Virus record (IMG/VR): IMGVR_UViG_3300045988_153208
Origin: a virus
Direction: 5' to 3' (one strand)
DNA length: 25,827 bases
This document shows positions 1-20,604 of this stretch, piece by piece (the first letter of the stretch is position 1; every line of letters begins with the position of its first letter). The notes beneath the pieces are model-generated. The model saw nothing but the letters and a program-made list of their open reading frames with translations, was not told the origin of the DNA and made no database searches. Both the position numbers and the translations under genes were made by a program.

Positions 1-3000
1 GTTATTTTAGCAGCTGTTTCTTTATTTAAGCCTAACTTCATTAAATTAGTCTACAATGCATTTAAAGTTTTCTTTTTTGTTGAATCTGAAATTGTTTCAT
101 TATTTATTTTATTAGCAGTACTTTCTAAATAAGTAGCTGCTGTTTCTTTTAATTTAGCTATTTCTAATCCTTCTGTAATAGCTTTTTCAGTTAAAATGGA
201 AGCATTATGCTAATCTCTAACCTATTTTAAAAATTGAATTCCTGTGGCCAAACTGTCAATACCACTTTTAACCATAAAACTAAGGCTACCAATAGAAGTA
301 AGAATAGCAACAGCTTTTTCCCACCCAGACATATCAGGATCTTTAATACTACTGATTAAACTATTAATAGAAGAAATCGCCATTCCCGCTGATTGAGCAA
401 ATGAAGCCATTGACATAAATGCTTCAATACCACCAACTAAATGTTTAGGTTTAAAATTTTCAACTTGTTTATTTAATTCTTCTTGTTTTTGCTTAGCTTT
501 TTCTTGGGCTTTTTGCATTTTTTCAAATGACTAAACAACTTTTTTAACTTCATCGTCTCCTACACCCATACCTCTTAAAGAAGCAACTAACTAATCTTGA
601 GATAACTTACTACTTTGCACAATCTAAATATATTGACGCATTTTAGCCATACGTTTATCTGTACCAGTCTCATCCCAAGGTATTGATGCAATTTCTTTCT
701 CTAAGCTTTGCAGTATTCCTAAATCCTAAATATTTTTAGGTAAATTTTCACGAAATAAATTAAAATAAGCTTCAGCTTTTGCTGTAGCTATTTCAAAATC
801 TTGAGTAGGAATTGGATCCTTTATATTAACAACATTAGCGTAATTTTCACTTGTTAAATTAGTTAATTTATCTAACTATGCTGTGACTTCAGTTGTCATT
901 TCATTAAACAAATTTGCTACTGGAGTAGTACCATCAGCTTTTAACCAAGCCGATAAGATATTATTTACAAGATTATCATTTAAGGTATCTATTTTATTAT
1001 AATACCCTTCTAAATCACTATATAATTGTTCATATTTTCGACCTAATAATGCATCCTTGGCATTTCCAGGATTATTATGGTAACTAGCCTAATCCCAAAC
1101 TTCTTCCATCTAATTATTATATGCTTTTGAAATACCTTTTTTGTCTCCTATCATGGTATCTTGAGCATCATTTATAATCTTTGTATAAGCGTCAATTTCT
1201 TGACCTAATTTAATAAGCTAATCTCCCTACTACTAGATACCCTATTTTTCTGTCTCCCAAAATGATTTCTCAGCTGCTGTCATTCTTTCTGAAGCTATAG
1301 TTATTTTATCTTTCATTTCAGAAACACGTTTAGAATTTAATAAACTCTATTTAGATTCTTCATCTAAATTATCACCTTTTTTAGATAAATAATTAGAAGT
1401 CTATTCATTTATTTGAGTATGAATTTTAGCATAAGCTTTATCAGCTCCACCAACCAATATTTGAATATTACTAATAACATTTCGTAAAGCAGGCTCAATT
1501 TTTGAAGCTAAACTCTATTCAACAATAGCTAATATTCCTATTAGTACTGGCTTAAGGCCTCCTATTTTATCAATAAATGAATCAACACCATCAACAGTAT
1601 CAGCTAAAAAATCAGTTAATTTAATAAAAAACTTATCATCAATTAAATCTTGATATAATCCCTAAAATGAAGCCTTCAAACGCTTATTAGCGGCTTCCCA
1701 AGACTCTTCATAAATTTTCTATTGCTCAGTTAATGTTCCAGTAGCATTACGAGCAGTTTCGAGATTTTCTTTCATGAAATCCCATTTATCCATCAATGCA
1801 ATTAATTGAGTATATTGGCGGACACCAGCAACAGTTTGAGCTAATGCCACTTTAGCATCTTTAGAAATTAATGGATTTCCTTCAGCATCAAATGAATTCC
1901 ATTTTTCGCCTAAATCATCAAGGATATCATCCATCTCTCGCAATCCACCATCTGCTGTTTTAATAGAAACACCAACAGCTTCAAGAGCTTGAGAATATTT
2001 TCCTAATGTAGTACCATCTTCAAGGGTTTTTCCCAATTCTAAATCTTGAATACGAGCAAATAATGTTTTAAATGCAGTACCAACCACATCAGCAGATTGA
2101 CGAGTTGTAGCTGTTACAGTTGCTAAAGCAGAAGTAGCATATTCATAACTTAAACCTACTGTATTTGACACAGCCGCGAATTTTTCTAATCCAGCCGCAA
2201 TTTCATCTGTACTAGAAGCAGTAGCAGCACCCAACGCCGTCATAACATCAGCATAATATTCTAATGATTGTGATCCATCATAGAAATTATTCCAAACAGC
2301 GGTCAATTGCTAAGAAATTTTATCGGCGCTTTCACCAGCGGCATTAGCCATTTTAATTGTAACAGCAGTTCTATCTTCTACTTCTTTATCAGATAAACCC
2401 TGTTGATAGTAAATTAAAGAAGCATCAGTATAATTTAATGTAGAAGTACTTAATGCCTTTGCCGCTTTATTTGCTTTATCAGCAAATTTATCCATATAGT
2501 CAATATTATGACCGGTAACAATTCGAATATCATTTAATGATCTGTTTAAATCCTAAGCATAACCATAAGCCCCTTGTAATGCTCCCATTACGCTATGAAT
2601 CATACTTGAAGAAATCTACCATTTAACTGTATTTTTAACAGTAGTTAAAAAATCCTATAAACGAGCATTTAAGCTAATCATTGGCTAATCAGCCGCAGCT
2701 ATAGACTAAGCCAATTTTACAAATGCTTGCTATCCCGTTACTCCCGCATCTAATAAACTTTTAGATAATTTAGTTACATCTGTCTAAGATCTATTTAAAC
2801 TTGCATTAAGTTTACTTAAATCATAATTGCCAGTAGCTGTATTATAAGCTTCATTTAAATGAAATGCTAACTATCTGGCTGCCTCAGAAGCTTTTTGCAT
2901 CTATTCTGGTTTAAGCCCTAAATCAGTACTATATGAAAGTTTAGTTAATAATTGTTGTAATTCTTGAATAGACTATTTTGCTTGAGTAGTATTTGCAGTA

Positions 3001-3032
3001 AAATCTAATGCAACATTTAATTGTTTTGCCAT
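1..3032 (-). CDS. Tail tape measure protein, 5' end at 3032 and 3' end beyond the left edge of the window. Single reading frame with many in-frame TAG codons.
   Basis: ORF-track fragments 222..518, 1719..2306 and 2310..2495 are all in the same frame (codon starts = 0 mod 3). Fragments 1719..2306 and 2310..2495 are separated only by TAG at 2310-2312 (..SADKIS-TAG-Q-L-TAVWNN..). TAGs at 531-533, 222-224 and 210-212 are also in frame with sense codons continuing. ATG at 3030-3032 is preceded by GGAG (rc of 3041-3044). The fragment text (AGLEKFAAVS..VGTAFKTLFARIQDLELG) matches the TP901-type tape-measure motif. Confidence 0.75.
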
Positions 3033-3061
3033 AAACGGGACTCCTTTCTCTCATAATATAA

Positions 3062-3100
3062 ACAAAAAAATGGGTGTGAGAAATAATCTTCTCACACCCA
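3062..3100 (-). terminator. Intrinsic terminator hairpin (GGGTGTGAGAA / TTCTCACACCC) followed by a T7 run on the minus strand, downstream of gene 3147..3671.
   Basis: Inverted repeat 3072-3082 / 3089-3099 with A-run 3064-3070 on plus (T-run on minus). Confidence 0.55.
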
Positions 3101-3146
3101 TACACTTGATTATTCCTATTTAATTTTAAAAAATCAAATAGTTTAA

Positions 3147-3671
3147 TTATCCCAACTTGGTCAAAACATCTTTTAGCAATCCTAATGTTTCAGGATTCTG
3201 AATATCATTAGTTAATTGCTCCATATCAAATGTTGTATCTTTATAATCAGTAGAAATAATATCCAAAATACCTGCCGCTGAATTTTTATACTCATAAATT
3301 GAATGGATAGTTTCTGCAACCCAACTCTTAATTTGTGCATATTCTCCTGGATTAATTTCTCCAAATACCTTAGCAGAAAAACCAGAACCAACTACCAAAT
3401 CATATAATTTCTTTGGGTCTTCTTTTTGTTTATCAGTAAAACTTACATTAGTATATGCCATAATCATTTTTAAAATAGTATGAAGATATACACGAGCAGG
3501 ATTATAATAACCATTCTTATCAATAGAGTCATTAATAATTTCTGAAATAAGATTTAACTTATCTCCAATAGGAAGATAATCCTTAACTTCAATAATCTAA
3601 TCTCCCCATTCAAATGTTGATACTTCTGTATTTTTATTTAAATTTAACTTTGAAAATGATACTTTTGCCAT
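3147..3671 (-). CDS. Hypothetical tail-assembly-region protein, 174 aa. One in-frame TAG at 3597-3599.
   Basis: ATG at 3669-3671 with AAGGAGG (rc of 3677-3683). Hand translation shows no TAA/TGA in frame down to TAA at 3147-3149. Includes ORF-track fragment 3147..3467. Confidence 0.55.
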
Positions 3672-3733
3672 TCCAAAATCCTCCTTTTACACTTATTTAT
3701 ATTATACTAAAAATTTAGTTTATTGTCAATTTT

Positions 3734-4813
3734 TTATATATGGACATAACGATCGCCCTTGATAAAATTAGTTCCTTTTACTAATTCATCTATTAATTCA
3801 TTTACTTTTTCAGATGCTTTATGAGTAGATAATTGAGCAGCATCTTTTTTTACTGGTTCTGAAATGTATCGAGCAATTTCTAAGGCCACACTACTAGGAG
3901 CTAAATTTTCATCAACAATTTTACTATAAGCTAAAATACCTTTTTCAATAGTAGTAAATGATGCTAAACGAACTCTATTTCGATATTGAGATGTTTGAGT
4001 AGCTCGAGCACCACTTTTTACTTGAAATCGACCAACATCTCCAGCTACCGTGCCACGCATTGTACCTAACGCACTTTTTATATGGCCCCATCCTATAGAA
4101 ACTGATTCATGATCCGCCCAATAGGAAGAAGAATATTTAATATCAATAGATGCTGCTAAAGACATCTTATCCATCAGTGTTAAATTTTCTAAATTATTTA
4201 ATTTTTCATAAATAAGACTATGATGTTCAGCTAAATGCTCTTCAAAAGCTTCAGAAATATAACCCTAATTAACTCGTGGTCTACGTCCTTTAGGTGGATT
4301 ATAAGTTCCTTTAATCATTGATAAATAACTTAAATAATGTTTAGTTAATAACTATTGTATCTATTGACTTGCAGAATCATTTAAATTTTGTGATAAATCA
4401 TCAATAGCTTTTTGTAAATCTAAACCAATTACTTTTCGTCCGTCTTCAGACCTTTCAAATAACCATTCTGCTTTAATCTCTTTAGTAGTATATCGGGTAC
4501 CTTCAAAATAAAAACTATATTCAATATTATCATAAGCATCTATTTTAGGTAAATAAATTTGTAATAATTTACGTAATTCTAATGATATTTTTTGGACTTG
4601 TTTATAAGCCATAAAAGCTTCATTAATTGTATTGGGTTGTATTAATGAAATTTGTTTTAATTTGTTTAAATTATTTTTTAAACTAGTATAATTGTTATTA
4701 GTATTATTTCTAATATTAATAATAATTTCTGTTAAAATAGCAGTCAATTCCTTCAAAGATATAACATTGTCCATATCAGAAGGAGTAAAAATTAATTCTT
4801 GATTGGTAAGCAT
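3734..4813 (-). CDS. Hypothetical protein, 359 aa, tail module (between the major tail and tape-measure genes; possible assembly chaperone). Three in-frame TAGs at 4361, 4352 and 4265.
   Basis: ORF-track fragments 4361..4813 and 3734..4174 are in the same frame. Hand translation of 4175-4360 shows only sense codons plus TAG. ATG at 4811-4813 with AGGAG. TAA at 3734-3736. Confidence 0.5.
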
Positions 4814-4826
4814 TTATTTTCTCCTA

Positions 4827-4868
4827 AAATAAAAAAATGGGGAAGAGGAATAAATCCTCTCCCCATAA
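4827..4868 (-). terminator. Hairpin GGGGAAGAGGA-ATAAA-TCCTCTCCCC plus U-run on the minus strand, between the major tail gene and the next gene. Possibly a partial terminator that sets stoichiometry.
   Basis: Inverted repeat 4838-4866 with A-run 4827-4837 on plus. Similar element at 10002-10040. Confidence 0.5.
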
Positions 4869-4883
4869 AAAATTTTGATTAAA

Positions 4884-5960
4884 TTACCAATTATAACTAT
4901 CGTGAGATTTCTGGTGAACTGTACTATGACGATGTAAATCATCATTATCCAAATACTCAATTACTTGAATTGCAGCCAGAACTTTCTTACTATGATCAAA
5001 ACGAGTATAATCAGGGAATGCATCTAAGGTGAAAGTAAATGTACTTGGGTCACCAGAAGAAGCCATAGTAAAGGTAAAGTTAGACTGAATCTTGCAGTTA
5101 GGAATAATAAATTCAGCAGGCATATCTACACCGTTAGTATCACGGAATAGAGTAGAAGCCTCAAGATAATAGTTACCACCGAACTTATCAGCAGTAATTT
5201 CCATCTGAGTAGCACCAGACTTGCGCTCAGTGTAATAATCAACTAGCACAGAATCGAACTTTAGACGATTTGGTAGAGTGACTACATCGTAAGCTGGGTC
5301 GCCACTTTCGCTCTCATATTTATGTCCTTGATTCTACTCATCTTCATAAGAAGCCAAACCAACATACATTTTATGATCCATAACAGCTACACGATAATAG
5401 GTTTTACCGTCTAGGTCAGTCACAGTCTCAGGCATAGCTTCACTATCAATAGCAGTATCATCACCCTCATGAACAGGAATGTAAGGTTCAGTAGTGATTT
5501 CGCCATTCTTCATAAACATTACATAAGCGAAGTTATCACCAGCATTAGCAGGTAGATAAGGCTTATTTTCAGTATAAACAGCAAATTTAAATCCAGTAGC
5601 ATCAAATTTAAAACGTAAAGAATCGCTTGCATCAACAGTCTCAGTTACATGTTGATAAATTGGCTTATCCTTATTAGCAGCAATTAAACCGGCACCAGAA
5701 AGAATCATAAATCCTTCAGGAGAAATTAAAGCATCCTCCATAGTAAAGGTTAAAGTTCTTTCACCTTCCCATGCTACTAAACGAGAGTTACCACGACCAC
5801 CTTGTGCATATACAGTGGTAGCAGCGCCTTCTAAACTAGAAGTTTTTAGGGTGTCAAAATAAATAACAGGTTCACCAGCATAGAATACCTTATTACCGAT
5901 TTTCTGTGCTGACTTAGCCTTTAGTACAACATCACAAATTTCGCGGACACCGAATTTCAT
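4884..5960 (-). CDS. Putative major tail (tube) protein, 358 aa, with in-frame TAGs at 5334-5336 and 5250-5252.
   Basis: ORF-track fragments 5334..5960 and 4884..5249 are in the same frame, joined by TAG. ATG at 5958-5960 is preceded by AAGGAGG. TAA at 4884-4886. The N-terminal region (ICDVVLKAKSAQ..GEPVIYFDTLKTSSLEG..) resembles TP901/SPP1-type major tail proteins. Position immediately upstream of chaperone/TMP genes. Confidence 0.55.
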
Positions 5961-5984
5961 AGTGTTATTTCCTCCTTGTATTTT

Positions 5985-6716
5985 TAATTAATGAATGTTT
6001 TTCATCCAATTATCCGGGGTCCCTTCAGGTTTACCACCAGCTAAACGCTAGCGCACATCCAGGTCCCAAGCAGTATATAGCGTATATCTCTCCATTAAAT
6101 CATATAATTGGAACATTGTCAGATTTGTCAAATCCTATAATGACATTGAACCTAATCCAATAGTCAAGATTGACATATACTAACTAAAAACACTTACATT
6201 CGAATTACCGTTTTGCGCGGCAACTCGCTGTCTCCCTCGCATTAGCTTTTGAGCAATCTCACGAGCCTTATCGTTGGCAGGATTGAAAGCCTACTAATCC
6301 ATCGGGCCATTGTGCATACAAAAGATTAAACGTAACACTTCTTGTAATGCTTCAAAATTATTTCCATCTATAGTAATAGGAGGAACACCTTCCTTTATAA
6401 ATAATAATGAGTTTGGTGTCACATTTATTTTATATGATGGGAATAATAAATTTAAAACATTTAAAATGTTAGCTTTTTTATCCTTTGTTTCATCCTATAA
6501 CATTATCGTCATAAATATCTAAAAATTATTGATACTGTCTAGAATAGTTTTGTCCTCTATAAACATAGTTTTATGTAAACAGAGGGTCTATGCTCCAATA
6601 AAAAAATCAGATTCCCCAATAAATGAAATTTCTTTTATCCTTGGTTGATGAGCGACTAAATTACATTCAGGAATCAACATATCAGTTCCGCAAATTAAAC
6701 TTAAGCGGTAATCCAT
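5985..6716 (-). CDS. Hypothetical virion protein, about 243 aa, with at least 7 in-frame TAGs including a TAG-TAG doublet at 6291-6296. Start is uncertain (ATG 6714-6716 or 6678-6680).
   Basis: About 230 consecutive codons were hand-translated on the minus strand with no TAA/TGA, in roughly 70% AT DNA. TAA at 5985-5987. The plus-strand ORFs 6310..6522 and 6623..6847 overlap it and look spurious. Confidence 0.45.
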
Positions 6717-7318
6717 TATTTACTAATATAATCCTTGAATTCTTTAATAAATTGTTCCTCTTTAATTTTGCCGCTATTTTTATCAGGATAAGTTGGCATA
6801 TATTTTTCATCTTCACCGCCATGAACAGTGCGATACATCAAACATAACCCAGCAAATTCATCAGTCAAAACAATCTAAGTAGCCCCCACAAATTCTAAAT
6901 AACCAATACCAGTCAATTTTTTCAAATTAAACATTGAATCAATCTCTCCAGCAATTTTATATGGGCGTAATGCATAATCTCTTAAATTCCATTGGTCAAA
7001 ATGACATATAATATCAAATTGAATAGTATTATCTCTAAACTCTGGATTTTCACTGGGAATAAAATTATCAAAATTAATTAATACATAATTTAAAACAGAG
7101 CCATCAACATATAATTTAGGCACTATTTTAATATTAGTTCCTAGTAAACTTAAAGACTAATCTTCAGTAAGATTAGGTTTTTCCATAGCATCACTAGTAG
7201 TATAATATAATAATTTTTTTAAACGATTATTTTTTAATATTTCATTAACAATAATCCCAGTATCTTTTTCCATAGATAGAAAACTTGATTTTGGAATATG
7301 ATATCCGTCTATTCTCAT
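6701..7318 (-). CDS. Hypothetical virion protein, 205 aa. In-frame TAGs at 6875 and at about 7138 and 7157.
   Basis: ATG at 7316-7318 with AAGGAG. Same frame as ORF-track 6875..7123. Hand translation runs to TAA at 6701-6703. Confidence 0.5.
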
Positions 7319-7340
7319 GTTTTCAATCTCCTTTTACTCA

Positions 7341-8495
7341 TTAAAACAATGATTCTACTACTATAGTTTTTCTACTAGTTCCATATACTAAATCAAACTA
7401 ACCACTATAAGTAGAGTCCCACTTAAGTTTAATCGTTGAAAATCCTTTATCATTAGTCCCTTCACTAATAATTCGGACAGGGACATCATTACCTTCAATT
7501 TTCCAAGTCCCTCGAACATTTTTAATATTTAAATTAAAATCATATTCTTTTTTAGGCTTAATAAAGGTTTCACCAACTATATTTAAAATTTTATTATTAT
7601 CTTTGTTATCATCTATAATTTTACGTTTTAATATTGGATCTGGTATTTTAAATACATCAGCCAATCCTGCATCTCGGTCATCTGTAAATTCATTAGCATA
7701 ATATTCAACAGCATTTACTTCAATAACACCAGTCATGCTAATATTATTTACAGCTTCAACTCTCCAACAGGTATCATAAACCGAACCATCTTCCGGCCAA
7801 ATATAAAACTTCTAATACCGTTTAAAAAATTTCAAAGTTTTTTCATTTTTAGGAATTAATAAATTTAAAGAATAATTTGGATTATCTACGCTAGTAGTAT
7901 GTTTTTGAATATAATCAATTTTAGTTTCTACTGGACCTCGATTAGCCACATAAACTACATTTAATTCATCATCCATCATAAATGGAATTTGATAGGTACA
8001 TCTACGAACGTCCCCACGGAAATAAGCTAATTCATCTAAATCCTATAAATAAATTAACCAATAAGTTCCAGTATTACACCATTCAAATACATCTCCACAA
8101 TTAAATTTATGTTCAAATCCAATCGAAATAACTTTATCATCATAATCCTATTTTAATTTATTAGGATTTATTAATGCTCGAACAGGAGGTAAAATATTTT
8201 TTTCTTTTTTAGTTTCTACCTCTGTGGCCGCACATTTACGCACCCAAGCCGCCTAATAAGAATATTTAGTAGCTTGGTCTAACGAATGTCGTTTATCTTT
8301 GATCATTCGCTACTATTGGGCAAAACCACCCGCACTCATTAATCTTTTAGCCATATCTAAACTACCATCAACTGAATCTGGCTAAGGAATTTTTATACTT
8401 GTATCACCTAAACGAGCCCCTACAAGATTTACACTTTTATTAGTATTTAAACCATAAGGTAATAATTTTTCCATCTTTTCTGGACGTTTTGGCAT
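7341..8495 (-). CDS. Hypothetical structural protein, 384 aa. About 12 in-frame TAGs, including a TAG-TAG doublet at 8310-8315.
   Basis: ATG at 8493-8495 with AGGAG (rc of about 8506-8510). All 384 codons hand-translated with no TAA/TGA. Ends at TAA 7341-7343. Includes ORF-track fragment 7398..7736. Confidence 0.5.
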
Positions 8496-8755
8496 TACTT
8501 TTTAATCTCCTATAATAAACTAATACATTCAAATACAGTTTTTCTATAAATTGAGAACTCAATATCATTTAAAACATTTAGCCCTTCTAATTTACTAAGC
8601 AACTATAAAAATCGCGGGTCCTAAATAAAAATTTCATTTAAGCCCGCAATTTCAATAATAACTGTATTTAATTGTTTATCCCAATCTTCTTCATTTTCTC
8701 TCATAGGGATTAATTTCCACAGTTGATTAGTTAATCTTACTATATTTTTCTCCAT
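8495..8755 (-). CDS. Small hypothetical protein, about 86 aa. Its stop overlaps the ATG of the downstream gene (TAATG).
   Basis: ATG at 8753-8755. Minus-strand translation MEKNIVRLTNQLWKL... has 3 in-frame TAGs and ends at TAA 8495-8497. Weak RBS. Confidence 0.3.
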
Positions 8756-8783
8756 GACTTCATTAGAAATATCTGTATGATAT

Positions 8784-9371: not shown

Positions 9372-9392
9372 GATACGCCTCCTATTTATTTA

Positions 9393-9980: not shown

Positions 9981-10001
9981 TTTATTATCTCCTTTTTCTC
10001 T

Positions 10002-10040: not shown

Positions 10041-10065
10041 TTAAACAATAGTTATATTAAGGTTT

Positions 10066-11175
10066 TAATCAAATAGTACCACTCTTACGGCCATCATAGG
10101 TAACAACCTTACCAGTAATGCCATCATAATTCCAAGTATACATTTGACCCATTAAGGAAGTGTCAACATAAGAGCAAATGTTGTTAGCCAACATACAACC
10201 AACGCCGACCTTCTTATAAACCTGAATCTCACGAGAACGATCGTAATTGCTGAATTCATCAACAATAGTTCCACCCTCGAAAGCAATCTTTACAGGCTTG
10301 CCATCAACACCAGTAGGAATAATCCAAGCATAACCAGGATCAATAACCTTACGAGTATTACTTTCATCTTCGAAGCCCTACTCTAAAATAACAACCTTGG
10401 TTCCCTTATAGGTAGCCAAACGGCCAGTATTCCACAGCTCAGTCTTCATAGCTTCAGTATAACGCCAAGCTTCATTAGGAATCATACGAACAGCAAATTC
10501 ATAAGTACAATAAATAGTAGGAGTACCATAAGCAGAAGCAATGGTAATCAAACGATCCATAGCACCCTCATCAAAACCTGCTGCAGCAACGCGGTTAGCA
10601 GGAGGTAGCTGATTGATAGAAGACTTCAAAGCCAAAGCAACTTCCTTATAAATCAGTTCATCCATACCATCCATAATAATCTTGGTAACTTCAGCAAAAT
10701 CAACACGACCATCTAAGAACTCTTCGAAGCCGATTTGAGCAGCTCCGCCGATAGCAGAGGTACGGACCTCAAAGCTCTCGCTCTCAGCAGGTCCCAGCTT
10801 GAAGACTTCATAGATACCAGCCAGTCCAACACGAGTCACAAACTGCTTAGCACGTGCGCGTGTATTTAGAGGACGACGGAAAATGGGCTTATCACCCTGA
10901 GCAAACTGCTTAACTTCAGCAAACTGCTCATAAGACTGAGAAACCTTCTTAGGAAGAACTTCATCCAAAGTCTCCTCAATCATTGAGAAAATTAGATTTT
11001 TATTTTCACGATATAGAGCATTGGTACCAGCCAGCTCGTTCATCTCATTACGTAAAGTATCGTTCAGAGCCTCATAAGAAAGGTTCTGACCATTATAACT
11101 GTAAGCCACAGGAGAAGAAGGATCAGCCTTAGCAACAGTCTTCATTAAAGCAACTAAATTGTTTCTATCTAACAT
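10066..11175 (-). CDS. Putative major capsid protein, 370 aa. One in-frame TAG at 10378-10380.
   Basis: ORF-track 10378..11175 continues in frame through TAG to TAA at 10066-10068 (315 nt in frame). ATG at 11173-11175 with AAAGGAGAG. Position scaffold-decoration-capsid as in lambda/SPP1. Followed by a strong hairpin. Confidence 0.5.
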
Positions 11176-11192
11176 TATTCTTCTCTCCTTTC

Positions 11193-12128
11193 TTACGCAA
11201 TACGTAGAATCTTAGCGCCACGTTGTCCATCAGGCATAGTATATACCTTAACAACCTGCCACTTCATATCCTGACTCTCATCTTTTACAAGAATTCCGTC
11301 AGCAGCTGCTGGAGCTAAAATATCACCAACAGAAACACTATCTTCATTAATCATATTAGTAGTATAATGATCACCAACATTAGTCTTGAAGACACGAGGA
11401 ACCATTGCAGTGCCTGGAGTCATACGCTTCTCATGATAAACACCAAGCTTCTTATATGGATCATTAGTCCAAGTCAGCTCTTCGTAAATGTCAGCAACAT
11501 CAGTTAGAACCTTATCATAAGCATACTTTACAGGCACAGGAGTCTTAGTCTGATTGGTCTTAGGATCAATCTCATACTCTACACCATTATAAGTAAACTT
11601 ATTGTCCTTAACATCATAAACTTCGCCAGCGATGGTAACAGTCTTTAGACCCTGATCTAAAGCAACAGTGTGCTCAAGCACCTTGTGATCAGCACCAGTT
11701 TCATCAACACCATTCCAGAAACGTCCACCATATTCAACCTCGGTATGCTCCCAATCGTATGGAGAATAAATACGAGCCTGATAGTCGTCCTTTAGCATAG
11801 CAAATTCGCAATCCCACTGCTTAGTTCCATCAGGATGATCGCGATATAACTTAATCTCATTATAAACTAGCATCCACTCGCCCTTGCCAGTAAAATTCAC
11901 TTCACCAATACCATTGGCATTAGCAGCGTAATCATACTTGACAAACTGACCGTTTTCAAGAATATTAATACCCTTGTTAGCAGGCAACTGAGCATAAATT
12001 TGAGCGGTTCTTTGTGCAGACAGGTGATTTGGCTCAACCTGACCATAACCAAACTCAACATACTTAGCCTGTGACTTAGGTGGATTTTTACCAACGCCTA
12101 AACGAGAATTTAAAAAATCCTTAAACAT
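11193..12128 (-). CDS. Capsid-associated protein, 311 aa. Decoration-like by position between scaffold and capsid; could alternatively be the major capsid protein.
   Basis: Complete uninterrupted ORF. ATG at 12126-12128 with AAGGAGG. TAA at 11193-11195. Confidence 0.55.
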   Translation of the reverse strand: MFKDFLNSRLGVGKNPPKSQAKYVEFGYGQVEPNHLSAQRTAQIYAQLPANKGINILENGQFVKYDYAANANGIGEVNFTGKGEWMLVYNEIKLYRDHPDGTKQWDCEFAMLKDDYQARIYSPYDWEHTEVEYGGRFWNGVDETGADHKVLEHTVALDQGLKTVTIAGEVYDVKDNKFTYNGVEYEIDPKTNQTKTPVPVKYAYDKVLTDVADIYEELTWTNDPYKKLGVYHEKRMTPGTAMVPRVFKTNVGDHYTTNMINEDSVSVGDILAPAAADGILVKDESQDMKWQVVKVYTMPDGQRGAKILRIA

Positions 12129-12146
12129 TTAAGTATGTCCTCCTTA

Positions 12147-13736
12147 TTAGTTTTTATTGGCTGATTCTAGAACAGCCTTGACCCAAGCTGGCATTCCAGC
12201 ATCTCTGTCATCATCTAAATTGCTTAAATTATAGGTAGTTGGGCCTTTATCATTATTATCATCATCAAGGTTAAAATTAACCTTGTTGCGAACACAAATA
12301 ACAGAAAGTTTTGCTTCAATATCATCAACAGAATACTTATCAATGTTATCAATAACATCTTTCTTATCATCATCAGACAGCATATAGAATGATTGAATCA
12401 TAGCTTCTTTATCCTTGCGTTCAATACTATTTTTAAACTCAGTTAAAGAAGTATTAGTTTCACTTAGAGTTTTATTTTCAGCCTCTAATAAACTAAATTT
12501 ATTTTGTAATTCTTCATATTCTGCCTTTAAGCTAACATATTCTTCAATTTCATCCAAGGAATACTTTTTCTTTTTCTTTTTATCCTCATCATCTTCTGAA
12601 GGATCGTCATCTTCATTTTCTGACTTTTGACCATTATTTTTAGAAGAACCATCATCTTTTTTGTTCTCAGGGTCGCCAGAATTATTGCCCTTATCATCGT
12701 TTGCCTTTTTATTTTCTTCTTCTTCTTGCTTTTTCTTAAATTCGGCTTCATAAGCTTCAACCGCATCTAAAGCAAACTGAGGCTCTGCTGCTGGAGTATA
12801 AGATTTAGTTACTTCAATTAAACCTTCACCAGGAACAAGACCATCAGAATCACTCAAAGAAAAGTTTAAACGATAATATTTCATATCTCCGCGGTCTTGA
12901 AGAATAGCAAATTTTTGACTATTATCTTCAAAAACGCCATCAATACGATATTTAGAGCAATAATTGTTAGAGCCATCAGGGAAAGCCTTATTTACATATT
13001 CCCATAAAGCACTCCATAGAGAATCTCCGATTTCTACGGCATATCTATTAAACACTTTTGCTCCTCCTTCTTTTAATAATTCTTTTAGTTCGTTCATCAT
13101 TGAGTATAGTTCATTTTTAAAACTATCATCAAATGAAAGAGAAAACTTTGTAATAGAGGAGCCTTCGAAGCAAGGTTCACACTCTTCTCCTAAAATACAA
13201 AGTTTAGAAATAATTGCTTCATTAATAATGAAAAACTACGGCTTTCCATTATTATCTTTCGTCCAAGTTCCATCTAAAGTACCTTCATCGAGCTCCATAG
13301 AATGATTATTGCCTTGCTCAATGATGCGCTTACATTCTGGATATTGGCCGGTCCATAAATATCCTTCAGTCATAAGATATTCATGTTCATTAACGCCATC
13401 ATCTAAAAATTTCTAAAACCAAACCTTGGCACCTAAATCTACAAAACCATAAGGTTTAGTAGTGTCTTTCATTTCAAACTTTCCGTTTGAAATATCAATA
13501 ATTCTATTGTGTTCCTCAAAATCTCCATTAGATTCATTATAAAAGCCAACAATAGGACTGCCAGGGAGACTATTAGCCATCTCCCTCGCAGTTTCTTTAG
13601 AAATAATGCTTCGATTGCGATTTGGTTCATCCCCAACGTAGCAAACTTTAATTTGGCATTTAGAAATCAAAGGATTAATAGGAGTTACATTAATAAATTC
13701 ACAAGGCGTTTCAAGTTTAATACTTTGATGCTTCAT
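12147..13736 (-). CDS. Capsid scaffolding protein fused to an about 210-aa N-terminal domain (possibly prohead-protease-like), 529 aa. In-frame TAGs at 13413 and 13236.
   Basis: ORF-track 13413..13736 and 12147..13100 are in the same frame. Hand translation of 13101-13412 shows no TAA/TGA. ATG at 13734-13736 with AAGGAGG. C-terminal half is highly acidic with coiled-coil-like repeats (EYEELQNKFSLLEAENKTL) and a K-run, typical of scaffold proteins. TAA at 12147-12149. Confidence 0.5.
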
Positions 13737-13747
13737 GATTTACCTCC

Positions 13748-15409
13748 TTAATTCATTGACTCTTTATTTTTTATGGTTTTTTCACTTTTCTAATCATCAG
13801 CCTTTTCAGGTCGCCCAGACTATTTTGTTTCAGTAGTCTGTTTTGTAGTAGTCTATTGATTACTACTTCCTGAATTATTTTGTGTTTTATTCTAATTGTT
13901 TGAACCTTTATTACCCAAAACATCTTGACTACTCATAGTAGAAGACATTAATGGTGGGATCATAATTTCAGTTAATTTCAACACATCATTTTCAAATACC
14001 GCAGTATTTAAAATAAAACTCTAAGAGTGACCAAGAGCAATTTGAGGTAGCATCTTAGAATAACCAAGTTGCGTTTGTTCTTTATATAATTTTGACATTT
14101 CTTTATAATTATATTGTGTAGTTTCAAGCATATAAAATTTAAAACTATATTTCTTATTGTTCGCAACTTTCATCTTTACTATTCTATCAAAAAAAATGTT
14201 AAATTGCAACAACAAGTTTCTAACAGTTGATTCATCATTAAGGATAGACTTCTCTAATGATAAATTACCATCAGTATTAAATAGATTTTGAGAAATACCT
14301 AAATTATTATAAACAGTACGTTCAACTTTTGCTAAATCATCTGTAGTAGTTGTAGTATTTTTATCTGATAAATCAATAGATTGAACATCAGTAAATGTTG
14401 TTAAAACATCAACACCAATAGCTCTTGATAACATAGCAACAGCATTATTATGTATGTCACGAGATTCATCAATATCAAATATTAAATCGCCATTTTTATC
14501 CATTGGAAGTTTTTGAACAATAATTTTTAACAACTTCTACATTTGTTTTCTGCGGTCTAAATCTTGAGCAGCATCTAAATCCATAAGAGCAGGGATAGAA
14601 TTAATAAATGGTGGGACATCACTACCATTAAAATTAAATTTCACACTTAATTCTGGAGATAGTAAATACCAACTTCCACTATAATCTCCCTTAATATCAG
14701 GAAGTAATTTTCCTTTCTTATATAAAACATATCCGCGCTAAAATTCTTCGGGGAATAATTTTAATACGCGCATACGATAATTAGGATCTGGAAACTAATC
14801 AAAAAACCGCATGTCAAACTCAATCGCTGGCATACCAGCCACAAAATATCTAGAACGGCAATAACTAGCAGGTAATTCTTGTAGCATTAAACTATTTGCA
14901 GATTGCACTATATATCCATAATAACAACCATTTTTCATAATACTTTGAGCAATATCACCGCAGATTTTTTTAATATAAGTATTATCTAAATAATTTAATA
15001 ACTTTGAAAAATCTTTTAAAACTTTTTCATCTTTTACTGTATCATCTAAAATCTCTGGAGCGACATACCAATCATATCTATACAAATAAGCAAAATAATT
15101 ACATACTCGCTCATAAATGCCGCTTATATCATAAAATAAATTAGAAATTCTACGCATTTCAACAATATCACGATTTATCATAGCTCGTAATACATCATTT
15201 TTAGTGACCATGCGACATGGTCCACGACGATTAGGATATAGCCGAGCAAATGACCCTAAATCTAATACAGCATCATCTAATGTTTGAACCCCAACTTTTA
15301 TTTTACGATATTCTGTTGGATCAGCAGTTCGATAATCACTTGTTCCATTGCTGATATTAAATCCTTTGGAGTGGATGATTTCCTAACGTGATAATTCTTT
15401 AGTATCCAA
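13748..15409 (-). CDS. Portal protein, 553 aa, with a Q/T/N/S-rich C-terminal tail and multiple in-frame TAGs.
   Basis: Putative TTG start at 15407-15409, 7 nt after AAGGAGG. Same frame as ORF-track 14795..15211 and 14021..14533. Hand translation continues to TAA 13748-13750. Located between terL and scaffold. Sequence FYDISGIYERVCNYFAYLYRYDWYV is portal-like. Confidence 0.55.
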
Positions 15410-15421
15410 AATTCCACCTCC

Positions 15422-15778
15422 TTAATATCCAGCTAATTGCATTATATAATCATATGTAATAAGATTTTCATCTGTATAAGGAATCTCTATTAATTTAAAA
15501 TCATGTAAAGCACAAAAACGTCGTTTTTGATTATCATTATATTGTTGTTGATATAAACCTTTTTTACCACCAAATTTTGCGCTAGGCTCATAATGCTATT
15601 TACCCTAATATTCAATAATAAAATCAATTCTACCATCATCATCAAAAACGACAAAATCGAAACGTAAGGGTCTGCCACTTGGTGCCTTCAAATCTGGGAA
15701 AATATACTCCATCTTAAATGGTAATTCAGCTTGTCGCAAAATCTCTTCAATTTTAATTTCGCCTCTAGACGCTCTCAT
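15422..15778 (-). CDS. Small Vsr/DUF559-like (PD-(D/E)xK) endonuclease, 118 aa. Possible free-standing homing endonuclease between terL and portal. Two in-frame TAGs.
   Basis: ATG at 15776-15778 with GAGGAGG. Translation ...LRFDFVVFDDDGRIDFIIEY[TAG]GK[TAG]HYEP... carries a D..(I/V)E..G..H-type motif. TAA at 15422-15424 overlaps the portal RBS. Confidence 0.35.
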
Positions 15779-15788
15779 AATTACCTCC

Positions 15789-17522
15789 TCAATTCAAGAA
15801 ACACCAATCTTTAGCATTAAACTTTTTACGTTTCTTCTTTTTATCTTCTTCTAATTTTAAATAATATAGTCCATATTCAAAAGCAGAAAATTTATCTTTT
15901 CGGATACTTTTATTTGCTTGTTTCAGGATAATATTTACTCCTTCAGTTTCTTCACGCAAATTCATCATTTCTTCTTTTAATATGGAAGTTAATGTAAATG
16001 GTTTTAATTCTTCTGCCCTCTATTCTGGAGTCATAGTTTGACCTTTCTTTTTAGCAAGAAGTTTATTTTTTGCTACGCGCTCATCAATTAAAAATTTCAC
16101 TTTTCCAGAAGCAAGTTGTGATTTAGCAATCGCGTGAGCTTCTGTATTAAGTGGCGCATTAGCTTTTATAATATACATAGCATCTAATACTGTATTAGAT
16201 GTTTTATATTTTTTATAAAATAAATCATCGTCATTAACAACACCAAAATCAGGGAAAATTTCATTGGTTTCAGGATCAATCTACGTCTTAACCATGTAAT
16301 CAATTAAACCAATTCCTAAACCATTACCATCAATTACAATTCTATCAGCATTATATTTATAATATAATTTTTTTAATTTAATAGTTTGGTCTTCAAAATG
16401 TTCATCAGATAATGTATATATATTCACTAGACTTTTAATCGACCCACCTTGTGATTGTGGAGTTACTTTAAATACACAAATAACTGAATCGCATCCTTTA
16501 CGACCAACGTCGACAGCAAGTACATAAGATGCTAATTTTGAATTACGCCCGGATGCTTCATATTCAGGCTAATTTAATATTCTATTTCTATCAAATATTT
16601 CAGCATTAAAAAATGCATCTTCTACAGTGCCAGACCATTTACTTTCATATTCTCGATCAAATGAACTTTCATTGAACGTTCCGTCCATTTTTAGGTCTTT
16701 AATAAAATTCGCATCTAATAATTTCATTAAAACAGGAATACGATAAGTACCACCCATAATAATAGATTGCTAAGGTTTAACAATCTCCCAAACTAATAAT
16801 TGGATTAATTTATCATAGGGGAAAGTATTTTTATATCCAGCAGTAGTAATATAAATTTGAGATTTATTAAGAGTTTCATCAGGTTGAGTAGTACCATCCA
16901 TACACATACGAGAAATATTCATTGTAGGAATAATAACTTGTGATAGAATATCACCATCAACACCAACACACTCTTCAATTAAACCACCATGGCGACGTTT
17001 ACCACGAGAAGACTCTCTTGCAGCAATATTATCAAAATATGAACCATTTTTAAATACATATTTAACATAATCTTTACCTTCAAGAGTTTGACCACGGCGC
17101 CAATCTATTTCTTTCTAAAATGCAGGAATAAGAGTACAAATTTCTTGAACTTTTTCTTTTACAATTCCAGCCGCTTGTTCTTTACCTCCAGAAGTAATAA
17201 ATAATTTACATCTGGGATATAAAATCGCACGACACATTAAGACCATCATTGACAAAAAAGATTTTGAATAAGCACGAGGGAATACAGCATAAATATATTT
17301 ATGACGCATCGCAGCGCGCAAAAAGATTCTCTAATAAAAATAGAGTTTAAAATGTTGAGGGCCGCCATCAGGTCCTGCCATGAAGTCGATAAACATATCT
17401 GGGTATTCTCTCCAAAAGGCTATGTACTATCTTGCTTCTGGTATAATTGCACGAAGACGGTCCTCTGAAATTCCAATCTTTTTACGCTTCTAAGATAAAT
17501 CAAGTAAATCCTATAAAGCCAT
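15789..17522 (-). CDS. terL: Terminase large subunit, about 577 aa, with multiple in-frame TAGs.
   Basis: ATG at 17520-17522 (AAGGA RBS). Same frame as ORF-track 17115..17321 and 16569..16757. Contains a Walker-A-like motif (AVFPRAYSKS), an ..RHGGLIEE.. segment, and a C-terminal nuclease-like region. TGA at 15789-15791. Confidence 0.6.
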
Positions 17523-17523
17523 A

Positions 17524-18720
17524 TTATCCTTCTAAATTTCTTAAAGTCTGAGCATCTATTTCAGATTCTTCCTCAAGGAAATCATTATATTCAATTAAAT
17601 CTTCATCTTTAAGATGATCGATTTCCTCCATCGTTAAATCTTCTTCAATATCTTGGTCTTCTTCTTTATTTTCTTCTTCTTGCATTTTCTTAATAGCCCC
17701 TTCAATGAGATTACCTAGATTCATCTCTTCAGTGACTAATGTGTGTGTATAATTCTTTAAATCTTGTAAAGTTTCATCAACTTTATCTTTTGGACCTTCT
17801 GTATAATACCGAGGGATAAATCCTTCAGTCTCACACATGGCTACTAATTCTCCAATAGAATCAAATGCTTCTCCTGTATCTGCTTTGTTTTGAGCGGCGG
17901 TGAAATTACCTGATTTCATTAGACTATCATAAACCTTGCTCATCTTTTGGAAACCTTCGATATCACCAATATCGATCAACTAGTTTGCTTTTAAGGATGT
18001 CTTACAAATTAATTTTAATGTATCAATATGACCAGCGCCGCGGATATCATAAGAACTCATCATTTCTTCATAGAGTTGCTCTAGTTTAACCCATTCTTCG
18101 GGTTTATACGCTTTACCCCACTTCATACGAAGATATAAAATATCTTCTTCTGTTAAATCGAGGTCATCTGCTGGGTCATGTTCAATACCATTCTATTGAT
18201 CAAAATAATCATCACCATCTCTAAAACGTTCTGGTAATTCAGGAGTGTAAGGTTTTAATTCTTCTTCTGGAATAGCGACAGTAGATTTAGCAATAGCTGT
18301 TGCTATTTGCTGGGCATCATAACCTTGTCGTTTCATAGTTTGTTCTAATTTATTATTAGCCACTTCCTATAAAAACTCAGAATCTTTCCATCGATAATCT
18401 CTATATTGTTTAAGTTTCATTTTGGACAAATATCTACCTAAAATACTCATACCAGTTAATTTAGATTTATCTTGTCCATATTTTACCATCAATTTACTCC
18501 ACTCATCTGGAACATAAGGTACATCAATTTCTTGTAGAATCCACATATAAGTTTCTGGATTCCAATTATCTACAAGCATTGTAATACATTTTTTACATTG
18601 AGGGAGTTTTCCATCATTTGGATATTTTTCTAAATTATTAGATGTATAAAACTGGTCAGCGCCCATAGTTCTATTACATCGTTCGCAATAATATACTTTT
18701 TTATCATTATCTACAGTCAT
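17524..18720 (-). CDS. 398-aa protein with an N-terminal Cys4 zinc ribbon (CERC..x23..CKKC) and a very acidic C-terminus. Possible terminase small subunit or DNA-packaging partner. In-frame TAGs at 18367, 18193 and 17980.
   Basis: ORF-track 18367..18720 and 17524..17979 are in the same frame. Hand translation of 17980-18366 shows no TAA/TGA. TAA at 17524-17526 sits immediately before the terL ATG. Confidence 0.4.
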
Positions 18721-18756
18721 AATTTTCCTCCTTATATCTATCCAATAACAGGCATC

Positions 18757-19827
18757 TCAAAATTATAACTGTTTGCCCTTGTTTTTAGCATTACGGCATT
18801 TTTTACAAATACTATAATAACCATCTTTACTAGTTTTATTTTTGCTAAAATATTTATTATGTGCTAATTTAATTTGCCCACAGCGACTACATTTTTTATA
18901 TTTACCTTTTGCTTTATGTAAATAATAATCATATAGGTATTGGTCTTCAGCCGCAGAGGCGATTAATTTTGGAATTTTATTGCGCCATAAACTAGAAATA
19001 TATTCTAAACTATGAGTAATATTAAATTCCTCTTGAATTTTCTTTTGAATGTCTATATTCTATAATCCATCAATTTTATATTCAACTATTCTATCATATA
19101 AGGGATAATCTTTAAGAGCAATGGTACATAAATTATCGAAATCTTCCATAATATACCATAAATCTCTTTCAAAATCTCCCCAACTATCTTGCTTTAAACG
19201 AGAATAATTACATAAAATTGCAGAACATACTCTAGGGTCTAAGAGTGAAACGCCATCCGGAATTGGATAACCATCATCATCAAAAATGCAAGTCGTGTCC
19301 TCTAATGGAATAAAATTTCTTGAACGAGTAATTTTAGTCATAACAATTGGACGACGAACTGCATTTTTAATAACATACTAATCTTTACGCATTTCAATAA
19401 TAGCACGTTTAATTATAAATGCTTCGCGTCCTTCACTAACTCGTAATTTGGCTTCCCAAGTAGTAATGGCGTCTCTTAACTATTTTAAATGAGGTATTTC
19501 TTCTATATCTTTTTTAGTAATTGTAATCTTAGGCTAAAATATTGTATTTTTATTTTCAGTAATTAAATTATAAATTCCATCTTCGCCATTCTCAAATTGG
19601 GAAACAAGACCTTCAAAAGATGTTTCACGCTTATTAACTGTTGCCATACGATTATCAGTTAATAATTTACGCTCCTTTTTCTCTTGTTTCTCCATACAAA
19701 GAATGATATAGTCCCCTAATATTTCTAAATATCGAGGAGAGGGGTCTGGGGTTTCCTCTAATATTTTCTTGACTAATTCATTTCTTTCTTCTGGAGTTTG
19801 TAAGGAATAATCTAATTTTATCATCAT
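18757..19827 (-). CDS. 356-aa hypothetical protein with a C-terminal Cys4 zinc ribbon (CSRCGQ..x17..CKKC). First gene of the leftward operon. Four in-frame TAGs.
   Basis: ORF-track 19534..19827 and 19060..19341 are in the same frame, joined through TAGs at 19534, 19480 and 19378. TGA at 18757-18759. ATG at 19825-19827 with GGAGG. Confidence 0.45.
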
Positions 19828-19852
19828 TACCTCCAGATTTTTTTACGTCTTC

Positions 19853-20585: not shown

Positions 20586-20604
20586 AAAATAGATTAAATA
20601 TATT

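Follow-up and report, generated by a model that had tools for sequence, protein, structure and literature searches.

Analysis of a 25,827-nucleotide stretch of viral DNA (IMG/VR record IMGVR_UViG_3300045988_153208; hereafter the window) showed that at least 18 genes use TAG as a sense codon, and we consider it very likely that the window follows genetic code 15, with only TAA and TGA as terminators. The window can be assigned with high confidence to a large SPbeta-like siphovirus from gut metagenomes, of which it holds the virion and packaging module and the start of the early region; near-identical contigs suggest a genome size of ~128–129 kb.

Under code 11, the longest of all ORFs had 363 codons, and only ~55% of positions 1–19842 fell within minus-strand pieces of 100 codons or more. 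Reading TAG as sense reconstituted 18 minus-strand ORFs that tile this region almost end to end, the longest of them (1,016 codons) extending past the window edge. A naive score of total ORF length was non-discriminating, since treating TAA as sense raised the total further still (13,536 codons); what decides the matter is how many stop codons fall in the homology-supported frames. Across the 6,358 codons of the 18 gene frames there were 89 TAG (90 when the TTG start of the portal gene at 15409 is used) and neither TAA nor TGA, whereas the two off-frames of the same region held 212 and 449 TAA, 110 and 465 TGA, and 167 and 96 TAG. Base composition puts the probability of finding no TAA or TGA in the gene frames at ~e^-410, and the longest run free of both has 1,016 codons, where shuffled sequences (n=200) averaged 116 and never exceeded 180; an earlier sequence-only reading of the window had rightly argued that such runs do not arise by chance and that the code is code-15-like. 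As it had also claimed, TAG is never a terminator (0 of 31 gene ends, comprising 17 complete minus-strand and ~14 plus-strand genes). The density of TAG per gene is very uneven (0 to 33 per 1,000 codons), as seen in the leftward virion and packaging block (TAG counts are in-frame):

1-3032, minus strand: tail tape measure protein, N-terminal 1,010 codons (PHROG tape-measure families, E=1.6e-42; PF10145); 31 TAG
3147-3671, minus strand: 174-aa protein between the tube-side genes and the tape measure gene (phrog_30570; 174-aa public call); 1 TAG
3734-4813, minus strand: 359-aa protein with no function assigned (TAG-as-sense ORF; 359-aa public call); 3 TAG
4884-5960, minus strand: tail tube protein, YomU_Tube-like (phrog_2729, E=1e-53; PF27173); 1 TAG
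5988-6716, minus strand: YomV-like virion protein (phrog_4051 over residues 1-241; weak PF27211 match); 8 TAG
6716-7318, minus strand: YomW-like virion structural protein (phrog_6123; PF27256); 2 TAG
7341-8495, minus strand: 384-aa virion-module protein (phrog_31155); 8 TAG
8495-8794 and 8784-9371, minus strand: two small overlapping head/tail-module genes (phrog_29637 and phrog_3853); 3 TAG each
9393-9980, minus strand: 195-aa protein adjoining the capsid gene (phrog_30998); 0 TAG
10069-11175, minus strand: major capsid protein, YonB-like (phrog_4088, E=1e-55; PF27364); 1 TAG in 368 codons
11193-12128, minus strand: 311-aa head-module protein (exact protein on ENA and Logan contigs; GC 0.40); 0 TAG
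12147-13736, minus strand: YonD_N-like 529-aa head-module protein (phrog_3313, E=1e-39; PF27290); 2 TAG
13748-15409, minus strand: portal protein, TTG start at 15409 (phrog_2739, E=1.5e-79; tblastn matches to annotated portals); 9 TAG
15422-15778, minus strand: HNH/homing-endonuclease-like gene in the terminase-portal gap (phrog_9084 and phrog_559, E~1e-24); 2 TAG
15789-17522, minus strand: terminase large subunit, 577 aa (phrog_5909; phrog_38, terminase); 9 TAG
17524-18720, minus strand: YonG_N-like 398-aa protein upstream of the terminase (phrog_3314, E=5e-57; PF27269); 3 TAG
18763-19827, minus strand: sigma-factor-like protein with a C-terminal zinc ribbon (phrog_5767, 'sigma factor', E=3.7e-53); 4 TAG

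In the tape measure, portal and tube proteins, among others, a single PHROG profile runs across the TAGs, and the fragments seen under code 11 are therefore parts of single genes; the N- and C-terminal halves of the terminase also match two separate 'unknown' PHROGs. In alignments, the TAG positions of the window pair with residues of relatives rather than with gaps or termini. On an identical ENA contig the public gene calls already have read-through lengths, including 2,784 aa for the tape measure gene, which leaves the window. The TTG start of the portal gene was upheld by protein-level conservation of the upstream 66 codons and an AGGAGG ribosome-binding site, the capsid gene (local GC 0.41) has tblastn matches to annotated major capsid proteins, and the sigma-factor-like gene, the first of the leftward block, is preceded by a perfect TTGACA-17-TATAAT at 19881-19853 (minus strand). 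All stretches translated by hand in the sequence-only reading proved to hold sense codons and TAG only, although one range, 5985-6716, overran its TAA stop by 3 nt. The TAG doublets it reported at 6291-6296 (YomV-like gene) and 8310-8315 (384-aa protein) are real, and a TAG triplet lies at 1227-1235 in the tape measure gene; at 2307-2312 a TAG and a Gln codon are present as described, but the coding strand has TAG first and CAA second.

Were the TAGs real stops, in a decaying prophage, through an assembly or sequencing artefact or with low-level programmed read-through, the large genes would all look fragmented under code 11, as they do. This explanation is vanishingly improbable, being refuted by the frame-specific counts, in which TAG is the sole stop triplet found in frame, and by cross-sample conservation: dozens of independent assemblies, drawn from different samples, share the TAG sites or have CAA or CAG in their place, and sequence identical to the window occurs on Logan contigs as well as at ENA. 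Leaky read-through of 31 TAG in 1,010 codons of one essential protein would moreover leave essentially no product. TAG is thus read here as sense, and its use extends beyond positions 1-19827, where the sequence-only reading had correctly placed it, to two plus-strand genes with one TAG each, followed by the early genes:

20572-20904, plus strand: small gene with 1 in-frame TAG, at 20590-20592
21204-21521, plus strand: AbrB/MazE-like 105-aa gene with a TAG at 21282-21284 (weak PF04014 match, on the 105-aa public call)
21700-25827, plus strand: early-gene block of ~9 small, standard-code-compatible genes (0 in-frame TAG; GC ~0.44)

Most close relatives retain the TAG at 20590-20592, and one has a Pro codon instead. 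Within the window, each gene of the early block is preceded by a near-consensus sigma-70 promoter-like site and most are followed by a terminator; in near-identical genomes the block extends ~40 kb further with ~1.7 TAG per 1,000 codons. The genome is partitioned by code, the rightward early/middle block being GC-richer and essentially TAG-free: the number of TAG per 1,000 codons is 12.0 for late genes and 15.2 for AT-rich cargo but 1.7 for the 43-kb early/middle block. TAG makes up ~32% of Gln codons in late genes, or about a third in the late virion genes and part of the AT-rich cargo.

The inserted residue was evaluated at 58 window TAG sites aligned at the DNA level with 80 related loci. 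These loci carried TAG 1,087 times, CAA 962, CAG 282 and GAA 201 times, and none had a stop codon (TAA or TGA) at these sites. The position-weighted log-likelihood was −113 for Gln, while Glu and Lys, which came next, reached ~−199, placing Gln ahead of every other residue by ~80 units. TAG sites (Q 0.53, E 0.09, K 0.04) and true Gln sites (Q 0.55–0.60, E 0.10, K 0.07) had matching residue profiles; similarly, four independent un-recoded relatives had Gln at 57–65% of TAG sites and at 55–65% of true Gln sites. Across the family, CAA, CAG and TAG together stay at 3.8–4.7% of codons while the TAG share ranges from 0 to 36%. The one-step mutational neighbours Tyr, Trp and Leu were not enriched at TAG sites (Tyr aligned three times and Trp never among the 80 loci), indicating that mutational proximity does not explain the codon pattern. 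Judged by these alignments, TAG is shown to evolve exactly like a Gln codon, and the inserted residue, which the sequence-only reading had held to be unreadable, can be read as Gln by comparison with relatives.

That TAG specifies another residue (Lys or pyrrolysine, or Tyr, Trp, Leu or Ser, which other amber suppressors insert) is accordingly given little credence. The same reading had observed that the TAG of the AbrB-like gene falls at a K/R position, and this TAG, conserved in four close relatives, does pair with Lys in distant ones (~32–41% identity); a single position is concerned, the stretch around it is weakly conserved, and the match is no argument against Gln because Lys makes up ~7% of relatives' residues at true Gln positions. 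A search prompted by the earlier reading found no tRNA gene within the window and a tRNA(CUA) of 72–74 nt in 5 of 5 genomes 95–97.5% identical to it; placed only on those near-identical genomes, it lies there in an array of 25–29 tRNAs ~63 kb to the right. It scores 52–55 bits against the Rfam tRNA model. In favour of a non-Gln residue, ARAGORN labels every CUA tRNA 'tRNA-Pyl', but this is only its name for that anticodon; also, with a best non-suppressor match of 68% and 59% identity to the family's tRNA-Gln exons, the suppressor isotype is not assignable by overall similarity. On the side of Gln, the tRNA combines a U1.U72 end pair, which is weak, with G73 and G10, and in E. coli these are Gln-type features. 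A point against Gln is that many Bacillota form Gln-tRNA via GatCAB and a GluRS of the non-discriminating kind, a route from which a tRNA with anticodon CUA may be barred. An interrupted tRNA-Gln gene was also seen, outside the window.

A phage that simply mirrors a host decoding TAG as an amino acid, with no code conflict and no regulatory role, is similarly improbable. In its favour, genome matches are limited to MAG bins with inconsistent taxonomy (mis-binned contigs), and no release-factor motif, RF2 included, was seen in 94 of ~128 kb examined. Against it, ~43 kb of early/middle genes nearly lack in-frame TAG while the late genes use it for ~32% of Gln codons, a partition that would be pointless under a TAG-decoding host; the near-identical genomes carry their own tRNA(CUA); close relatives from the same gut habitats are in some cases wholly un-recoded; and, according to the predictions of Borges et al. 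(bioRxiv 10.1101/2021.08.26.457843), every recoded clade except the code-25 phages has hosts with the standard code (Firmicutes or Bacteroidetes). In a standard-code host, ribosomes would translate the TAG-free early genes, and the phage tRNA(CUA), on which a host enzyme would load Gln, would build up until the TAG-containing late genes could be translated, acting as a translational gate on late expression as in the model of Borges et al.; this timing is read from gene order and promoter-like sites. Decoding of TAG would have to be near complete, because the first 1,010 tape measure codons hold 31 TAG including a triplet. The capsid gene with its neighbours and the tube gene, the most highly expressed virion genes, are nearly TAG-free, which suggests that TAG is decoded less well than CAA or CAG.

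The nearest described relative, and best annotated match (capsid 50% and portal 41% identity), is phAss-1 (OQ749652), reported with a wider human-gut phage group by Babkin et al. 2023 (PMC10607447) and listed by NCBI in the 'Caudoviricetes code 15 clade'. Both are gut siphoviruses of ~130 kb whose tape measure protein is very long, and both have TAG inside terminase, portal, tape measure and other virion genes and tRNA-Sup(CTA) in a large tRNA array; in both groups recoded and un-recoded relatives stand side by side; phAss-1 has no dedicated synthetase (PMC10607447). Megablast gave no nucleotide similarity between them, placing the window phage outside the proposed Phassvirus genus; phAss-1 carries three suppressor tRNAs (one of 88 nt) whereas the window lineage shows one of 72–74 nt, and gene order near the tRNAs differs.

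TAG-recoded phage clades were surveyed by Borges et al., and Peters et al. 2022 (PMC9523058) report code-15 crAss-like phages validated by metaproteomics. Like those phages, the present one would read TAG as Gln via a phage suppressor tRNA and has recoded codons mainly in structural and late genes, with early genes compatible with the standard code; unlike them, it showed no RF2 gene in the 94 of ~128 kb examined. The lysis genes, for which a bias has been reported in recoded phages, fall outside the sequence covered. The GC correlation seen within the family agrees with the low GC and TAG-poor terminators of recoded lineages and their relatives (bioRxiv 10.1101/2021.08.26.457843).

In contrast to the Crassvirales or Lak phages of Bacteroidetes, this is an SPbeta-like siphovirus, presumably of Bacillota. 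Its structural module matches that of Bacillus phage SPbeta and its relatives in family content, with YonG, YonD, YonB, YomW, YomV and YomU and then a giant tape measure protein; capsid and portal are distantly similar to those of SPbeta-like siphoviruses, including Enterococcus phage EF1-like phages and Brevibacillus phage Sundance, with protein identities of only 23–41%, and these phages of Bacillota use the standard code, unlike the window phage. E. coli supE, a weak host suppressor derived from tRNA-Gln2, is a tRNA-Gln with a CUA anticodon that inserts Gln at amber codons. The phage tRNA would do likewise, but, at 59% identity, it shows no recognisable descent from the tRNA-Gln of the family, and near-complete decoding would be required of it. 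Code 15 has ample documentation among gut phages, and gene-calling pipelines in public use already accommodate it.

Under the bacterial code the longest ORF of the window is 363 codons, and minus-strand fragments of 100 codons or more account for only ~55% of positions 1-19842, the block of virion and packaging genes (hereafter the late block). With TAG read as sense, the minus strand was tiled almost gap-free by 18 ORFs, the first of which comprises 1016 codons and runs off the window. In the 6,358 codons of these genes, counted from the first ATG, TAG occurs 89 times in frame and TAA and TGA not once; the two off-frames of the same DNA hold 212 and 449 TAA, 110 and 465 TGA, and 167 and 96 TAG. 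From base composition, the probability of zero TAA or TGA over this length is ~e^-410, and the longest run free of both codons (1016 codons) exceeds those of shuffled sequences (n=200; mean 116, maximum 180), in agreement with the sequence-only reading, which had held runs of 200-550 codons not to arise by chance. The stretches translated by hand in that reading were likewise open except for TAG, the TAG doublets it had placed at 6291-6296 and 8310-8315 were both recovered, along with a TAG triplet at 1227-1235, and its statement that TAG never terminates a gene in the window held at all of the ~31 gene ends (0 TAG). A few early ORFs of a near-identical genome carry a TAG, within ~5-35 codons of their end, that might serve as a terminator. 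Comparison of gene lengths between codes had been proposed as a check; the summed length of long ORFs was rejected as a discriminator because TAA as sense gives a still larger sum in AT-rich DNA. The deciding evidence is the frame-specific stop counts together with homology. These counts, the conservation of TAG sites across samples and the number of TAGs per gene exclude pseudogenes, artefacts or leaky read-through as the source of the interruptions.

The reconstituted proteins were matched to PHROG profiles with TAG masked as X, and single profiles were found to cross the TAGs. The features assigned in this way are as follows.

1-3032, minus strand, tape measure protein
4884-5960, minus strand, tail tube
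minus strand, two virion proteins
10069-11175, minus strand, capsid
13748-15409, minus strand, portal (E=1.5e-79)
minus strand, HNH endonuclease
15789-17522, minus strand, terminase large subunit
18763-19827, minus strand, sigma-factor-like protein

An ENA contig (ERZ27261223 k119_14822; 186 kb) is 100% identical to window positions 1193-22128, and its public gene calls already have read-through lengths, the tape measure protein, for instance, being called at 2784 aa. Precomputed Pfam matches on this contig comprise YonG_N (PF27269), YonD_N (PF27290), YonB (PF27364), YomW (PF27256), YomV (PF27211; weak), YomU_Tube (PF27173) and PhageMin_Tail (PF10145). Judged by these predicted families, the structural module is SPbeta-like, with YonG, YonD, YonB, YomW, YomV and YomU, in this order, preceding a giant tape measure protein. 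No meaningful match came from our own Pfam scan of ten reconstituted proteins, because the Pfam copy used predates the PF27xxx SPbeta families. The capsid protein resembles major capsid proteins annotated in large siphoviruses of Bacillota, among them staphylococcal phages termed 'SPbeta-like'. For the portal gene, the public call on the identical contig starts at ATG 15211 (487 aa), and the sequence-only reading had preferred TTG 15409 (553 aa); the latter is favoured, as relatives at ~50% identity conserve the protein sequence encoded by the 66 upstream codons, and the TTG is preceded by an AGGAGG at a distance of 7 nt. This start brings in a ninth portal TAG and raises the window total to 90 in-frame TAGs. 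The N- and C-terminal halves of the terminase match two PHROG families of 'unknown function', phrog_15503 and phrog_24618 (E=5e-62 and 2e-54), which were probably assembled from fragments of recoded terminases called with code 11. The choice of code matters for annotation, since code 11 breaks the terminase, portal and tape measure genes into fragments.

To determine the inserted residue, 80 related IMG/VR loci were gathered with a portal query and 17 window proteins were aligned to them by tblastn; the codons were read directly from the DNA, so the amino-acid inference is independent of translation tables. At the 58 TAG positions covered, the relatives carry TAG 1087 times, CAA 962 times, CAG 282 times and GAA 201 times, with other codons fewer and TAA or TGA never found. 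With positions weighted equally and substitution profiles drawn from the same alignments, the log-likelihood of the residues at TAG sites was -113 for Gln versus ~-199 for Glu or Lys. The sequence-only reading had considered the inserted residue impossible to read from the sequence and had suggested tabulating the residues aligned to TAG; codon alignment and likelihood together resolve it as Gln, with Glu and Lys ~80 log-likelihood units worse. Residue profiles at TAG sites (Q 0.53, E 0.09) and at true Gln sites (Q 0.55-0.60, E 0.10) are almost the same. Several un-recoded relatives have 0 TAG in ~4,500 aligned codons, and four un-recoded lineages carry Gln at 57-65% of the sites that are TAG in the window, versus 55-65% of those that are true Gln codons there. 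Across the family, TAG/(TAG+CAA+CAG) ranges from 0 to 36% while the sum of the three codons stays constant at 3.8-4.7% of all codons, and the apparent Gln content of the window rises from 2.9% to 4.3% once TAG is counted. At the level of codon alignment, these data show that TAG is equivalent to a Gln codon, and the substitution profiles exclude a sense TAG that specifies another amino acid. Two further candidates were rejected: that the Gln signal arises because CAG is one mutation away from TAG, since CAA outnumbers CAG and the remaining single-step neighbours of TAG show no enrichment, and pyrrolysine decoding, suggested by the label ARAGORN gives the tRNA, since the Lys profile lies ~80 log-likelihood units below that of Gln. 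Lys is indeed the residue that distant relatives show opposite the TAG of the AbrB/MazE-like gene (21282-21284), consistent with the K/R position noted earlier; this is one site at ~32-41% identity.

The use of TAG varies widely among and within genomes. The 80 loci, which form one protein family (~57-70% identity), carry 0, ~1-2, ~4, ~7 or 10-15 TAG per 1000 codons in the same genes; TAG rises as GC falls (rho=-0.59), yet some low-GC members are un-recoded. Late-block genes of the window differ in how often a Gln codon is written as TAG: the share is 0-11% for the tube gene, the capsid gene and the two genes flanking the latter, and 46-67% for the genes of the tape measure and YomV-like proteins and the one at 7341-8495. 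Across genes, this share is negatively correlated with GC (rho=-0.58, P=0.012).

The genome was then followed rightward on a near-identical contig in the same orientation (IMGVR_UViG_3300045988_141926; 128,379 bp), on which window position 1 corresponds to ~14,110. In-frame TAG density separates its blocks.

In-frame TAG per 1000 codons in the near-identical genome
Late virion block: 12.0
Rightward early/middle block (43 kb, 70 ORFs): 1.7
AT-rich cargo block: 15.2

The few TAGs of the early and middle genes lie mostly at ORF edges or within an AT-rich island. GC follows the same division (~0.30 in the late block, 0.40-0.50 in the early/middle block and 0.19-0.28 in the cargo block), and code compartments coincide with GC compartments both in the window (1-21600 versus 21700-25827) and in four related loci (L095, L120, L121 and L122); in L095, the GC-rich block is interrupted at 14.7-16.7 kb by an AT-rich island whose minus-strand genes bear TAG. 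The early part of the window (21.7-25.8 kb) contains ~nine small genes with 0 TAG, each preceded by a near-consensus TTGACA-17-TGnTATAAT, with a terminator-like hairpin after most. At the start of the early block, ~0.9 kb without a convincing ORF holds six copies, three in tandem, of a 28-nt unit, AAGATTGTTAAAAATTTAACAATGTAGC (22212-22869); each unit contains the palindrome TTGTTAAA...TTTAACAA, and the units look like operator sites. The cargo block, very AT-rich and on the plus strand, lies between the middle genes and a tRNA array in related loci (L122, 11000-20700; L123, 11000-20400) and is heavily TAG-recoded, with up to 11 TAG in 467 codons. By sequence motifs, L122 encodes several radical-SAM/SPASM-like proteins and a methyltransferase-like protein, alongside a Cys/Tyr/Gly-rich ORF (14577-15197), and L123 a YcaO-like protein; cargo content varies between genomes that are otherwise 95% identical.

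Neither ARAGORN nor Rfam identified a tRNA or other Rfam match in the window. No tRNA was found in 69 related loci, which jointly span from ~10 kb left of the portal gene, a point inside the window, to ~38 kb right of the window's end, nor over the ~43 kb of early and middle genes of the near-identical contig. These genes are followed on the right by the AT-rich cargo block, beyond which lies an array of 25-29 tRNAs. A tRNA with a CUA anticodon, which the sequence-only reading had proposed to look for, was found in all five genomes sharing 95-97.5% nt identity with the window: it is 72-74 nt long, has the anticodon loop CU-CUA-AA, is scored as a tRNA by Rfam (52-55 bits) and lies ~63 kb right of the window end, a position placed on the near-identical genomes rather than on the window's own contig. 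Overall sequence similarity assigned no isotype to this suppressor; it has a U1.U72 mismatch, G73 and G10, which are Gln-type identity features in Escherichia coli. The release-factor gene that had also been suggested was not detected, as judged by the GGQ motif, in 94 kb stitched from a near-identical genome, and a look-up of the 116-aa protein neighbouring the suppressor returned a different, more distant relative rather than the window's ENA contig. In more distant relatives, a tmRNA gene lies inside the tRNA arrays (L134, 14296-14640; L135, 14370-14714; L143, 7354-7723), accompanied by a 91-nt tRNA(CUA) that is much longer than the 72-74 nt suppressor. That the host itself is recoded for TAG, with the phage simply following its code, is unlikely: the early block is TAG-free, the phage lineage has its own suppressor, and close relatives are un-recoded.

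The tRNA arrays also contain interrupted genes. The only tRNA-Gln(UUG) seen in the arrays (L148, 10754-10950, at ~102.0 kb of the near-identical contig) is split in five of five near-identical genomes (L144-L148) by a conserved 121-nt insert in the anticodon loop, and the suppressor follows 0.9 kb downstream of this gene. The exons of this tRNA-Gln share 82% identity with the tRNA-Gln(UUG) of phAss-1, the closest described relative, and deletion of the insert from the sequence restores the loop CUUUGAC. The insert has no Rfam match, and its length falls below the ~200-nt lower bound usual for group I introns. A related, sporadic 112-nt insert lies between U34 and U35 of tRNA-Lys(UUU) in one genome (L146, 15994-16180) and is missing from the intact sister gene of another (L147, 16652-16726). 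Both inserts carry the common motifs GAATCGTnTAAATG and TATGAGTnCAAnTCTCATTT and a common closing 7-bp stem with compensatory differences, and they look like a family of small mobile inserts targeting anticodon loops. A third insert, of 337 nt at the classic site between U34 and A35 of tRNA-Leu(UAA) (L145, 15062-15485), proved to be a conventional group I intron, with a full-length RF00028 match just below the gathering score (44.9 bits, E=3e-10); this tRNA is intact in L148 (14817-14902).

The phage lineage thus has a tRNA cognate to TAG, and code usage divides the genome into blocks. TAG-free early genes would be read by host ribosomes under the standard code, and late-gene translation would open as the phage tRNA(CUA) accumulates. 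Decoding must be nearly complete, because one protein contains 31 TAG in 1010 codons. The first late gene encodes the sigma-factor-like protein and has four in-frame TAG; a perfect TTGACA-17-TATAAT at 19853-19881 on the minus strand faces it. Late transcription could therefore itself be gated by the suppressor, as the position and TAG content of this gene suggest. This sigma-70-type site and a second one (19937-19965, plus strand) stand back to back in a 140-nt divergent region. We think it improbable that the TAG-bearing sigma-like gene, the sharp GC boundaries between TAG-free (~0.45) and TAG-rich (~0.30 or 0.22) blocks and the split tRNA-Gln make the code switch of this SPbeta-like lineage more tightly wired than those of described cases. 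If the 121-nt insert were a new small intron with regulated removal, the balance between CAA and TAG decoding could depend on it.

Related loci inside metagenome-assembled genomes (L096-L117) bear the labels Mollicutes, Clostridia, Erysipelotrichaceae, Gastranaerophilales, Bacteroidales, Muribaculaceae and Treponema. Assignment of a host from this collection was rejected, as all 22 loci come from MAG bins with inconsistent taxonomy; these relatives are most likely mis-binned phage contigs.

Borges et al. (bioRxiv 10.1101/2021.08.26.457843) have described the biology to which the TAG recoding of the window conforms; Peters et al. (PMC9523058) provide proteomic validation of TAG recoding in crAss-like phages, and Cook et al. 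(PMC11210395) examined the gain in phage annotation from predicting stop-codon reassignment. The nearest described phage is phAss-1 (PMC10607447), a gut siphovirus of ~136 kb in which TAG interrupts virion genes and which carries three genes for tRNA-Sup(CTA); its capsid and portal are 50% and 41% identical to those of the window, without nucleotide-level similarity; megablast of 25 kb of the window against 50,697 phage records gave no match. By the criterion of ~80% or more nucleotide identity and shared synteny with phAss-1, the window falls outside the proposed genus Phassvirus (phAss-1, BK046881 and BK025033). With respect to the wider phAss-1 group (Babkin et al. 2023), phAss-1 ranks second by best hit, behind an unannotated faecal contig and ahead of Enterococcus EF1-like phages. 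Taken together, the sequence features fit a genetic code 15 recoded member of the Caudoviricetes: TAG is sense rather than a terminator and equivalent to Gln, a suppressor exists in the lineage, and the early genes are TAG-poor. Because this biology has already been described in recoded phages, the window represents no new phenomenon and leaves its understanding unchanged; it adds a well-sampled SPbeta-like family to the TAG-recoded gut phages, one whose relatives, at ~57-70% protein identity, range from 0 to 36% of Gln codons as TAG and so provide a natural series for how recoding arises.
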